DNA from: Armatimonadota bacterium
Lineage (GTDB): Bacteria; Vulcanimicrobiota; JACPDS01; JBDRKI01
NCBI GenBank assembly: GCA_043814095.1
Contig: JBDRKI010000038.1
Span: 1 to 29,705 of the forward strand
Length of the DNA stretch: 29,705 nucleotides
Direction of reading: 5' to 3'
The notes below the pieces were generated by a model. The model made no database searches and was not told the origin of the DNA. It saw nothing but the letters and a program-made list of their open reading frames with translations. Shown in pieces: positions 12,731 through 13,587 of the stretch. The position numbers were made by a program, and so were the translations under genes. Each line of letters starts with the position of its first letter. The stretch's first letter is position 1.

Positions 12731-13587
12731 CAAATTAAAGGCGCTTGGCAGTTTATTCGTCTAGTTGGTGAAAATCCAATCTTGGTATCAGTGATACCTT
12801 AGTAGCAGCGGACAGGACAGAGCAGGGTAACCGTCTGTCTGAAGGGTCCTTATGCGAAAGGTAGCTTGAACACAAAAAACAGTTGGTCGACCTATGTGTG
12901 TACTATAGGGAAGACCCGTTGAAAAAACTGGTTCGAGATACCCGAAAGAGATGAATAAATGACCCAAGGAGATCCCGGAAGAGATGAATCGATTAAAAAA
13001 CTCTCCGGGAAGTCAGCTGACTCATAATAGCCGATTCGTCGGCAAAGGAGAAAGCCTATGATAGAAATATCACCTGAGAATGTTAGCGGTTTTGTAGTTG
13101 GTGAAGGGTGCTTTTACGTAGAAAGCGGTTTTGATAAGAAATACAAATTAAAACACAGAATTCGCCCCGCATTTTGTATAGAGGTTAAGGCAGAAGATCG
13201 AGAAATACTCGAAGCCATCCGTGATATTTTGGGATGCGGCAAAGTTTATGAATTAGACTTTGGACGATACCAGGGGTATCAGGATAAGAAATGGAAACCT
13301 CATGTAAAATACAGGGTAAGTAATCAAGCCGATTTAATACAGAAAGTAGTCCCGTTTTTTGAAAAATATCCGCTCTTTGGAAAAAAACTGGAAGCTTTTA
13401 AAGTTTTTAAAGAAATTTTAAAAGGGCTTTCAAAAGGAGAACAAAAAACTCCTCAAGGACTGGAAAATTTAAAAAAAACAGCCAACCAGTTGAAAACTGT
13501 TAATAAAAAGGGAATCTAGGACTCGCCGGATGCGCGATATGTGCTTGTCCGGTGGGGATGGAAACATCGATTCAATGGAATCCAAAT
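12731..13587 (+). mobile_element. Group II (IIC-like) intron in 16S rRNA at E. coli position ~1396, LAGLIDADG-encoding
   Basis: Removing 12731-13587 restores TTGTACACACCGCCCG. DV CTCGCCGGATGCGC..GTGCTTGTCCGGTGGG (13522-13556, CGC triad). DIII GAAGTCAGCTGACTCATAATAG. EBS loop GTGTGTAC 12896-12903. Ends in AT. Confidence 0.9.
13058..13519 (+). CDS. Single-motif LAGLIDADG homing endonuclease (16S intron, domain IV)
   Basis: VSGFVVGEGCF motif, RIRPAFCI, LGCGKV, VVPFFEKYPLFGKK; AAGGAG RBS. Confidence 0.93.
   Translation: MIEISPENVSGFVVGEGCFYVESGFDKKYKLKHRIRPAFCIEVKAEDREILEAIRDILGCGKVYELDFGRYQGYQDKKWKPHVKYRVSNQADLIQKVVPFFEKYPLFGKKLEAFKVFKEILKGLSKGEQKTPQGLENLKKTANQLKTVNKKGI

Follow-up and report, generated by a model that had tools for sequence, protein, structure and literature searches.

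A probable rns-1396/16IS9 group II intron with a LAGLIDADG endonuclease gene in the 16S rRNA gene of an Armatimonadota-like bacterium

Introduction

An intron at site S1396 of the 16S ribosomal RNA (rRNA) gene reportedly occurs in Thiomargarita namibiensis and other Thiotrichaceae (Salman 2012, as cited). Here we analyse a similar element in the window, by which we mean the whole 29,705-bp contig JBDRKI010000038.1 (contig C38), part of a 2.5-Mb assembly of 129 contigs that is 98.97% complete. The element, an 857-nucleotide (nt) insert at positions 12731-13587 of the forward strand, is very probably an intact member of the rns-1396/16IS9 family, that is, a compact group IIC-type ribozyme at 16S position 1396/1397, whose domain IV loop consists of a gene for a single-motif LAGLIDADG homing endonuclease. 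The family is known and the host is of a new kind; the novelty is modest.

The sections of Liu 2026 (PMC13190283) on these introns define rns-1396 as the one family of group II introns in bacteria that encodes LAGLIDADG proteins, and place its representatives exclusively in four Thiotrichaceae genera. According to the same paper, all members possess a linker at the 5' end (section 8), and the family lacks exon-binding site 2 (EBS2) and employs a pairing between EBS3 and intron-binding site 3 (IBS3; section 10). The second described system stems from the candidate phyla radiation (CPR). Here, the excerpts of Tsurumaki 2024 (PMC11270868) report 53 group-II-like inserts, termed 16IS9, at 16S position ~1400, 39 of which carry LAGLIDADG genes and none a reverse transcriptase (RT); the relation of these inserts to the fungal and sulfur-bacteria introns is left open there, and I-ShaI, the enzyme characterised, comes from a 23S group I intron. 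A full-text literature search yielded no report of the family in Armatimonadota, Planctomycetota, Omnitrophota or Actinomycetota, nor of a lineage at site 1398, and supplementary tables may list more. Excerpts of PMC12285271, PMC11608272 and PMC4748821 contain nothing on the rns-1396 family. The initial annotation of this stretch, made from the sequence alone, had recognised the kinship with the S1396 intron of sulfur bacteria, but overlooked both the CPR catalogue, in which the family is common (PMC11270868), and the rns-1396 analysis (PMC13190283).

The window element resembles the rns-1396 introns of Thiotrichaceae in its insertion at site 1396, the IIC backbone, the CGC triad, a 5' linker in front of the equivalent of the GUGYG motif and a single-motif open reading frame (ORF) in domain IV. 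The ribozyme aligns with theirs over its full length, and the endonuclease is 64-65% identical to the proteins of loci L004/L005 and belongs to the same clade. In contrast, the host lies outside the Thiotrichaceae, and domain VI, as folded by eye, features an internal loop, where most relatives harbour a single bulged A (RNAfold, by eye). With the CPR 16IS9 inserts the element shares the site region, the protein family and the lack of an RT, and the Saccharibacteria locus L009 as well as the Doudnabacteria locus L010 are members of its 20-row endonuclease clade. Unlike the CPR hosts, however, the window host possesses a 2.5-Mb genome and is Armatimonadota-like. In the excerpts of PMC11270868, “position 1400” lumps the 1396 and 1398 lineages without separating them.

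Further counterparts are the IIB1 introns of fungal mitochondrial rRNA genes (Toor and Zimmerly 2002 and Li et al. 2011, as summarised in sections 10 and 15 of PMC4424553), where a LAGLIDADG gene likewise replaces the RT, the host gene likewise is an rRNA gene, and extra nucleotides likewise precede GUGYG. The fungal enzymes I-OnuI, I-PanMI and I-LtrI are also the best profile match of the window endonuclease. Yet, the fungal introns are of type IIB1 rather than IIC, their enzymes are mostly two-domain monomers rather than one-domain proteins, and they reside in another host compartment. Finally, IIC retroelements of the Oceanobacillus iheyensis type share the small ribozyme, the CGC triad and the short EBS1, whereas canonical IIC retroelements code for an RT/maturase, have GUGYG at their start and target sites behind terminator hairpins; the window intron instead encodes an endonuclease, starts with a linker and occupies an rRNA gene.

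The interrupted 16S rRNA gene

The contig bears an rRNA operon, which according to Rfam comprises a 16S gene starting at 11351, a 23S gene at 13996-17768 and a 5S gene at 17855-17971. The 16S gene (11351-13737) is split by the insert as follows:

11351-12730, forward strand: 16S rRNA 5' exon, ending with CCUUGUACA, with IBS1 GUACA at 12726-12730 (Rfam small-subunit match; the joined gene aligns over 1-1530)
12731-13587, forward strand: group IIC-like intron of 857 nt, consisting of ~395 nt of ribozyme and a 462-nt ORF (alignments of relatives and sub-threshold Rfam matches)
13588-13737, forward strand: 16S rRNA 3' exon, beginning with CACCGCCCGUCA (joined-exon comparison)

Normal 16S sequence extends up to CCTTGTACA (12730), so that the left border reads GTACA(12730)|(12731) and the right border (13587)|CACCGCCCGTCA(13588). 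Joining the exons by script produces a 1530-nt 16S sequence, which aligns over positions 1-1530 (or 6/7-1530) with the intron-less 16S genes of all six same-phylum genomes fetched, at 81-85% identity. At the junction the alignment is free of gaps in all six cases, with 25 nt before and 17 nt after the junction identical, and therefore the borders of the insert are exact. The proposal that an 857-nt insert divides the decoding-region motif of the 16S gene is thus confirmed. The insertion site lies between positions 1396 and 1397 of Escherichia coli 16S rRNA. The name rns-1396 (PMC13190283) is consistent with this position.

The 16S 5' exon is present as a single copy in the near-complete assembly, and hence removal of the insert is necessary. 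The 16S-23S spacer (13738-13995) measures 258 nt and contains no tRNA gene; ARAGORN found none anywhere in the window.

Relatives and ribozyme fold

While a scan of genome contigs with the single endonuclease protein gave no loci, a pattern scan with a protein alignment retrieved 15 loci from species-representative genomes and 71 from metagenome contigs (locus numbers with the prefix L). In 59 of these 86 loci an insert of 150-1200 nt lies between ...GTACA and CCGCCCGT. A further 16 retain only one flanking motif, mostly since a contig end cuts the locus, and 11 have neither; the latter include the spacer-borne gene of L012, as well as L015, where the sequence looks 23S-like by eye. Together with the window, 49 distinct intron sequences are available.

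Since database models gave no clear answer, the ribozyme fold was judged by comparison with these relatives. Three alignments were used, covering domain I (45 of the 49 distinct introns; L027, L047, L052 and L059 were left out as duplicates or near-duplicates), domains II/III (42 of 47 sequences with a J2/3 motif) and domain V (48 rows, 45 of them distinct). Over the three alignments, 74 helix pairs were counted, and 59 of them display compensatory changes. The elements of the fold are:

12731-12743, forward strand: 5'-terminal linker CAAAUUAA (12731-12738), followed by AGGCG (12739-12743) at the position of GUGYG (alignment of relatives)
12744-12968, forward strand: domain I (RNAalifold, 45 introns), with helices 12744-12748/12964-12968 and 12751-12755/12956-12960, a hairpin at 12764-12780 and a GUAA-capped hairpin at 12815-12840, the long-range stem 12859-12870/12932-12943 and the stem 12886-12888/12913-12915
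12891-12909, forward strand: EBS1 hairpin, stem CCUAUG/UAUAGG, loop UGUGUAC at 12897-12903 (alignment of relatives)
12969-13014, forward strand: domain II, with basal pairs G12969-C13014 and A12970-U13013, a 2-nt bulge on each strand and the stem 12973-12981/13002-13010 (relatives)
13015-13017, forward strand: J2/3 AGC (UCAGC identical in 42 of 42 rows)
13021-13050, forward strand: domain III, with outer stem CUC/GAG, internal loops, inner stem 13030-13034/13039-13043 and a UUCG loop (alignment to Rfam D1D4-1)
13051-13521, forward strand: domain IV, with basal stem CCUA (13055-13058)/UAGG (13517-13520) and the ORF as its loop (stem in 47 of 47 introns)
13522-13556, forward strand: domain V, with lower stem CUCGCCGGAU/GUCCGGUGGG, bulge UU, upper stem GCGC/GUGC and loop GAUAU (fold and relatives)
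13559-13587, forward strand: domain VI and 3' end, UGGA (13559-13562)/UCCA (13581-13584), inner CAU/AUG and tail AAU (partly by eye)

For domain I, RNAalifold predicts 45 pairs from the 45 introns, 40 of which show compensatory changes. After one isolated pair had been dropped, 44 pairs in seven helices were counted, 39 of them changed on both sides. In this domain, 91.9% of 1973 alignment cells are paired, as compared to 67.4% upon shuffling (none of 500 shuffles reaches the observed value) and to 33-46% if the partners are slid by 1-3 columns. The 11 pairs of domain II comprise 8 with compensatory changes and 3 that are invariant in all 42 rows, and all five pairs of the domain III inner stem changed in a compensatory manner, which adds up to 13 out of 16 pairs for both domains (42 rows). 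We take A13015, the first nucleotide of J2/3, as the candidate gamma partner of the last intron nucleotide, U13587, a role assigned from group IIC structures.

Domain V has a lower stem of 10 bp and an upper stem of 4 bp, with a bulge of 2 nt on the 3' strand between them, and is closed by a loop of 5 nt. Of the cells belonging to its 14 pairs, 96.8% are paired among the 45 distinct rows, versus 35-43% with slid partners, and 7 pairs underwent compensatory changes. The catalytic triad CGC corresponds to C13523-G13524-C13525, i.e., nucleotides two to four of the domain, and its pairs C-G, G-U and C-G are each kept in 42 or 43 of the 45 distinct rows. The window shares every invariant column of the ribozyme alignments. 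With ~395 nt, its ribozyme is close in length to the ORF-less relatives, which measure 411-413 nt. The bacterial case was classed under IIB1 in the sections of PMC4424553 on this topic; the CGC triad and the ~400-nt ribozyme agree with the later IIC assignment.

The outliers of the domain V alignment are L030 and L062, two introns at site 1398 (see below), whose domain V cannot be aligned with the family and which lack the CUCGC motif. They probably are decaying copies.

The basal stem of domain IV spans the first base of the start codon as well as the stop codon of the ORF, whose end is 2 nt away from domain V. In 47 of 47 introns examined, the surroundings of the start codon form a helix of 3-9 bp with the nucleotides that immediately precede domain V (L030 and L062, without a domain V anchor motif, were left out), and its sequence varies among the relatives, e.g., CCUAU/AUAGG, CCGAU/AUCGG or ACUAA/UUAGU. 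This stem is the softest of the helix results, as the best of many registers was taken and no shuffled control applies.

At gathering thresholds, Rfam reports no group II family in the insert. A permissive search of positions 12700-13620 gave group-II-D1D4-4 at 12762-12875 (32.6 bits, cut-off 49, E 2.3e-5) and group-II-D1D4-1 at 12993-13050 (22.4 bits, cut-off 35, E 0.12); for the domain V/VI model RF00029 the same region contains no match at E<=10. On the homologous intron L006, RF00029 reaches 34.6 bits (cut-off 40). The Rfam check proposed in the initial annotation favours group II below the curated cut-offs only: two group II D1D4 models do match, both under their cut-offs, and RF00029 is silent. 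The claim itself, a group II ribozyme with IIC traits, is nevertheless upheld by the domain V with its CGC triad, the EBS1 pairing described below and the 59 compensatory pairs out of 74. The D1D4-1 alignment also draws a 3-bp hairpin GUC/GAC around J2/3. By eye, this hairpin is not kept in the relatives, and RNAalifold pairs UC with GA as the base of domain II; accordingly, we read the stretch as the end of domain II plus J2/3 and dismissed the hairpin.

Intron ends

All 45 rows of the 5'-half alignment contain between 6 and ~33 extra nucleotides before a conserved nnRCG at the place of GUGYG. In L073 and L076 the linker is enlarged by a small hairpin (~20 extra nt, within the first ~30 nt of the intron), which lies between the 5' splice site and the GUGYG equivalent. 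The missing GUGYG argues against a canonical group II intron, but not against the rns-1396 family, because this departure is a trait described for its members (PMC13190283, section 8).

Domain VI is the least certain domain of the window intron. Drawn by eye so as to retain the family architecture, it would have an internal loop AA/GAA with A13580 (position -8) unpaired, whereas its minimum-energy fold shows no bulge. Most relatives fold (RNAfold) into a stem of 4-5 bp plus 3-4 bp with one bulged nucleotide at -8, an A by eye, and a tail of 2-4 nt; exceptions are L044 with an uninterrupted stem and several others with a short stem and a large loop.

Exon recognition and the two insertion sites

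The EBS1 sequence UGUAC (12899-12903) is complementary to GUACA (12726-12730), the last five nucleotides of the 5' exon. Among the relatives, two insertion types occur: 24 distinct introns follow GTACA and precede CACCGCCC (site 1396), and 25 distinct introns follow GTACACA and precede CCGCCC (site 1398). Both types end with ...AU, mostly AAU and in some cases GAU. The EBS1 loop comprises UGUAY in all 24 site-1396 introns (23 UGUAC, one UGUAU), and in all 25 site-1398 introns it comprises UGUGU, complementary to ACACA, without UGUAY. Hence, in 49 of 49 distinct introns the EBS1 sequence goes with the insertion site, although these introns are related to each other and do not represent 49 independent events. 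A loop that co-varies with the site in this way is the behaviour expected of an EBS1-IBS1 interaction, as read from these alignments. As CA is repeated at both borders, the junction alone can be read as 1396, 1397 or 1398; the window intron is assigned to 1396, because its EBS1 UGUAC fits GUACA only and the 3' end of the family is AAU|.

The site-1398 sister lineage, located 2 nt downstream of 1396, encompasses L006, L007, L016 and L018 together with 21 other distinct introns from metagenomes. In the 46-row tree of the endonucleases, site 1398 does not form one clade, but appears in three separate places, i.e., a Levybacteria-type clade, an Omnitrophica-type pair and a Planctomycetia-type clade with the site-1396 intron L031 as its sister. 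Read by parsimony, the tree suggests at least three site switches. The paired change of site and EBS1 offers a natural experiment on how the ribozyme and the DNA endonuclease stay directed at one common site.

The endonuclease and its putative target

The ORF in domain IV and the DNA site that its product might recognise are located as follows:

13058-13519, forward strand: gene for a single-motif LAGLIDADG homing endonuclease of 153 amino acids (Pfam PF00961, E 1.7e-20)
12718-12730, no strand assigned: left part of the site that the endonuclease putatively targets in intron-less alleles, joined to 13588-13596

The ORF scores 74.3 bits against Pfam LAGLIDADG_1 (cut-off 23.1), and a domain search of the insert ORFs found no reverse-transcriptase domain. 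A collection of 5.8 billion proteins contains 249 homologues at E<=0.001, mostly 152-157 amino acids long. In an alignment of 28 proteins, including the window's own, 36 columns do not vary. G15-E16-G17 in the motif ...GFVVGEGCF... are among them, with the motif acid E16 present in all 28. The profile of this alignment finds its best match among solved two-domain enzymes of the I-PanMI/I-LtrI/I-OnuI type (E 2.9e-44), and each of the two domains of these fungal mitochondrial-type enzymes matches the whole query. This pattern fits a one-domain protein that would have to dimerise. Single-motif LAGLIDADG enzymes homodimerise.

The best named relatives of the endonuclease are from a Thiotrichaceae metagenome-assembled genome (MAG; 65% identity) and from Ca. 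Thiomargarita nelsonii (64%). The nearest relatives of all (80-83% identity) are on contigs of only 940-992 nt, the hosts of which are unassigned. On the 46-row tree, the window falls into a clade of 20 rows with support 98/94, which mixes Thiotrichaceae, Actinomycetota and CPR rows, all of them site-1396 or spacer-borne. Accordingly, three earlier claims stand, namely a LAGLIDADG ORF in domain IV (as enclosed by the domain IV stem), no RT in the insert and kinship to the S1396 intron of giant sulfur bacteria.

The putative 22-bp target, CGGGCCTTGTA^CACACCGCCCG, is dyad-symmetric at 8 of 11 positions. This score equals the maximum among 1300 centres scanned in the 16S gene, where 1.2% reach 7 or more. 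Relative to the insertion sites, the dyad centre is upstream by 2 bp (1396) or 4 bp (1398), and the endonuclease may bind here. LAGLIDADG enzymes usually cut with a 4-nt stagger; suggestively, the top-strand cut of a homodimer doing so would coincide with the insertion point at 1396.

The hexamer AAGGAG (13045-13050) forms the 3' strand of domain III and at the same time looks like the ribosome-binding site of the ORF. In the window, the domain IV stem takes up the initial base of the start codon, and in many relatives it takes up the complete AUG. Since a likely ribosome-binding site and start-codon base(s) are thus part of ribozyme helices, translation of the endonuclease may compete with folding of the ribozyme.

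Host and distribution of the family

The host looks like a member of the Armatimonadota: besides the 16S comparison given above, the linked phosphofructokinase gene (22185-23480) codes for a protein ~61% identical to the best named proteins, from Fervidibacter and an “Armatimonadota bacterium”. The suspicion that the host is not gammaproteobacterial is supported. A BLAST comparison with 400 other sampled genomes of the host phylum did not find the intron in any of them; two matches of 25-26 nt inside the ORF were taken as chance. An uninterrupted junction occurs in 150 of the 400 genomes, a tally that counts the unpublished genomes G127, G177 and G230, and the remaining genomes may lack an assembled 16S gene.

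According to record titles, related loci belong to a Thiotrichaceae MAG, Ca. Thiomargarita nelsonii, Planctomycetia, Omnitrophica, Actinomycetota, Saccharibacteria, Doudnabacteria and Levybacteria. By record title or linked genes, the family would thus cover at least eight phylum-level groups: Pseudomonadota (Thiotrichaceae), Armatimonadota, Planctomycetota, Omnitrophota, Actinomycetota, Saccharimonadota, Doudnaibacteriota and Levyibacteriota. As judged from these labels, the distribution plainly does not follow host phylogeny. Its patchiness over unrelated phyla and the absence of the intron from sampled host relatives point to horizontal acquisition, in keeping with the wider or horizontally spread family envisaged in the initial annotation.

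With confidence slightly better than even, we interpret these loci jointly as one horizontally moving rns-1396 family, which (by record title or linked genes) spans at least eight phylum-level groups, was re-aimed from 1396 to 1398 at least three times with a matching change in EBS1, and in an Actinomycetota-labelled lineage saw its endonuclease leave the intron for the 16S-23S spacer, reminiscent of “collaborative homing”.

Some members of the family deserve a separate description. ORF-less 1396 introns of 411-413 nt are present in Actinomycetota-labelled and related loci (L013, 25-435; L058, 388-800; L059, 74-486), and in L058 and L059 domain IV has shrunk to an 8-bp hairpin. Homologous endonuclease genes reside in the spacer 147-228 nt downstream of the 16S 3' end (L011, 508-957; L012, 175-624; L013, 809-1258; L058, 1409-1849; L059, 1095-1535; L061, 610-1056), and their products cluster with those of the intron-borne L008 and L044 (clade support 99/100). 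A split into a free-standing endonuclease and an ORF-less intron is known from phages, and the spacer arrangement resembles it. Group I matches above cut-off lie near the 16S 3' end in L058 (893-1186, 63 bits) and L011 (11-274, 54.5 bits), and weaker ones in the Thiotrichaceae locus L004 (1662-1849 and 3495-3678). Such extra introns in the same 16S genes fit the multi-intron 16S reported for giant sulfur bacteria.

Proposed mechanism

Splicing, DNA cleavage and mobility of the window element would proceed as follows. The rRNA operon would be transcribed with the intron included. The ribozyme would then dock GUACA via EBS1 and excise itself, whereby hydrolysis seems likelier than branching as the first step, because 8 extra nucleotides precede the GUGYG equivalent and domain VI lacks a clean single-A bulge; the expectation builds on the work of Li et al. 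2011 on fungal introns, as summarised in PMC4424553 (section 15). Ligation of the exons would yield a normal decoding centre. The endonuclease, made from the precursor or from excised intron RNA, might cut the pseudo-palindromic intron-less site as a homodimer, and repair off an intron-bearing copy would spread the intron as DNA, with no reverse transcription involved. The “DNA-homing, RT-independent” mode ascribed to the element from the outset is likewise inferred from the family.

Counter-evidence and rival explanations

Several observations weigh against an intact, mobile rns-1396/16IS9 intron. The curated gathering scores of the Rfam group II models are not reached on the window, and RF00029 gives nothing even at E<=10. 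The 5' end is without GUGYG, while the 3' end, AU, does fit AY. The minimum-energy fold of domain VI consists of two small hairpins without a bulged A, and therefore is off the family pattern. The window endonuclease stands by itself on a long branch (0.58, versus a median of 0.13), which could mean relaxed constraint. The host label rests on one protein search and 81-85% 16S identity, and the hosts of the relatives are titles of MAG records, where rRNA contigs can be mis-binned. The excerpts of PMC13190283 and PMC11270868 contain no biochemistry on an rns-1396/16IS9 endonuclease.

Public RNA data gave no attributable spliced junction, and every public run contains fewer than half of the sampled words. 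In run X1, RNA from groundwater, the exon is represented by unitigs of 156 and 165 nt without differences at a depth of ~1400, and the intron by two unitigs (151 and 177 nt, each with a single difference) at a depth of ~3. In all contigs joining across the intron, the shorter side measures under 30 nt and is inside universally conserved sequence, so that they may come from any bacterium. The gap in depth between exon and intron equally fits an intron-less strain accompanied by a rare intron-bearing one, as both situations would look the same.

The most serious rival is a decaying relic, which is immobile in this lineage since the endonuclease has lost its homing activity or the intron depends on factors of the host; even so, the ribozyme still has to splice, because the intron sits in the only 16S gene. 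The long terminal branch of the endonuclease and the non-canonical domain VI are in line with such decay, and so are decayed ORFs elsewhere in the family (L062, L066, L076 and L082, with longest frames of 36-101 amino acids, 101 in L062) and the deviant domain V of L030 and L062. Yet, the window ORF is full length and retains the 36 columns invariant in 28 proteins, including E16, and the ribozyme conforms to every invariant column of its alignments, which leaves the relic an unlikely reading. Less probable still is an assembly chimera, where an intron of another organism in the sample, e.g., a CPR member, was stitched in via the conserved flanks. MAG rRNA regions are prone to such errors, the 400 other sampled genomes of the phylum lack the intron, and the closest endonuclease relatives are confined to very short contigs without an assigned host. 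A chimera, however, requires two separate false joins, and the 3' flank is universal for only ~12-17 nt before it passes into the lineage-specific helix 44. Moreover, the contig runs without a break across the 16S, 23S and 5S genes and into unique genes on both the upstream and the downstream side, and the 23S gene of the same operon bears an endonuclease-carrying insert of its own.

Two further alternatives are so improbable that they hardly compete with the rns-1396/16IS9 assignment. In rRNA, LAGLIDADG genes usually reside in group I introns, and a weak group I match is seen in the 23S insert of this operon; but RF00028 finds nothing in 12700-13620 at E<=10, where two group II models do match, and group II features are present in the covarying domain V with its triad and bulge, in the pairing of EBS1 with IBS1 and in the AGC of J2/3. 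An intervening sequence, cut out by RNase III without re-ligation, would leave a fragmented 16S rRNA. Such elements do occur in bacterial rRNA genes (for 23S, in the excerpts of PMC11270868); the conserved fold of a catalytic intron, however, is not the simple long hairpin of such a sequence, and a break in the decoding-centre strand would be hard to reconcile with function.

Implications

An RT-less, endonuclease-driven group II intron of the rns-1396/16IS9 family can live, it appears, in a bacterium of ordinary size outside the CPR, at the decoding centre of its sole 16S gene. In E. coli numbering, the insert interrupts the target of the widely used 1392-1406 primers. With the primer target split and the gene 857 bp longer, intron-bearing organisms would be under-counted in amplicon surveys. 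The window and the related loci contradict the confinement to Thiotrichaceae printed in PMC13190283, and they link rns-1396 to the CPR 16IS9 inserts, a relation left open in PMC11270868, as far as the excerpts of both papers reach.

Other mobile elements in the window

Positions 1-1760 harbour an RT-type group II intron that is cut by the contig start. Rfam matches D1D4-3 at 1-145 (89.6 bits) and D1D4-1 at 185-262 (65.6 bits), an RVT_1 ORF of 345 amino acids extends over 289-1326, and a domain V/VI match at 1690-1760 falls slightly short of the cut-off (38.2 against 40 bits). This copy may be decayed, since the ORF is short for an intron-encoded protein.

The insert in the 23S gene (16043-16787, 745 nt) lies after GUAACUAU and before ACGGUCCUAAGG, presumably at about position 1917. 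A ~1917 site is among those listed for CPR in the excerpts of PMC11270868. The insert contains a second LAGLIDADG_1 ORF (16194-16691, 165 amino acids, 73.9 bits) and the weak group I match mentioned above (16595-16743, 30.3 bits, cut-off 50). As the 23S gene also bears an insert, both the 16S and the 23S gene of the only operon are interrupted, and the two LAGLIDADG genes of the assembly both reside within this operon.

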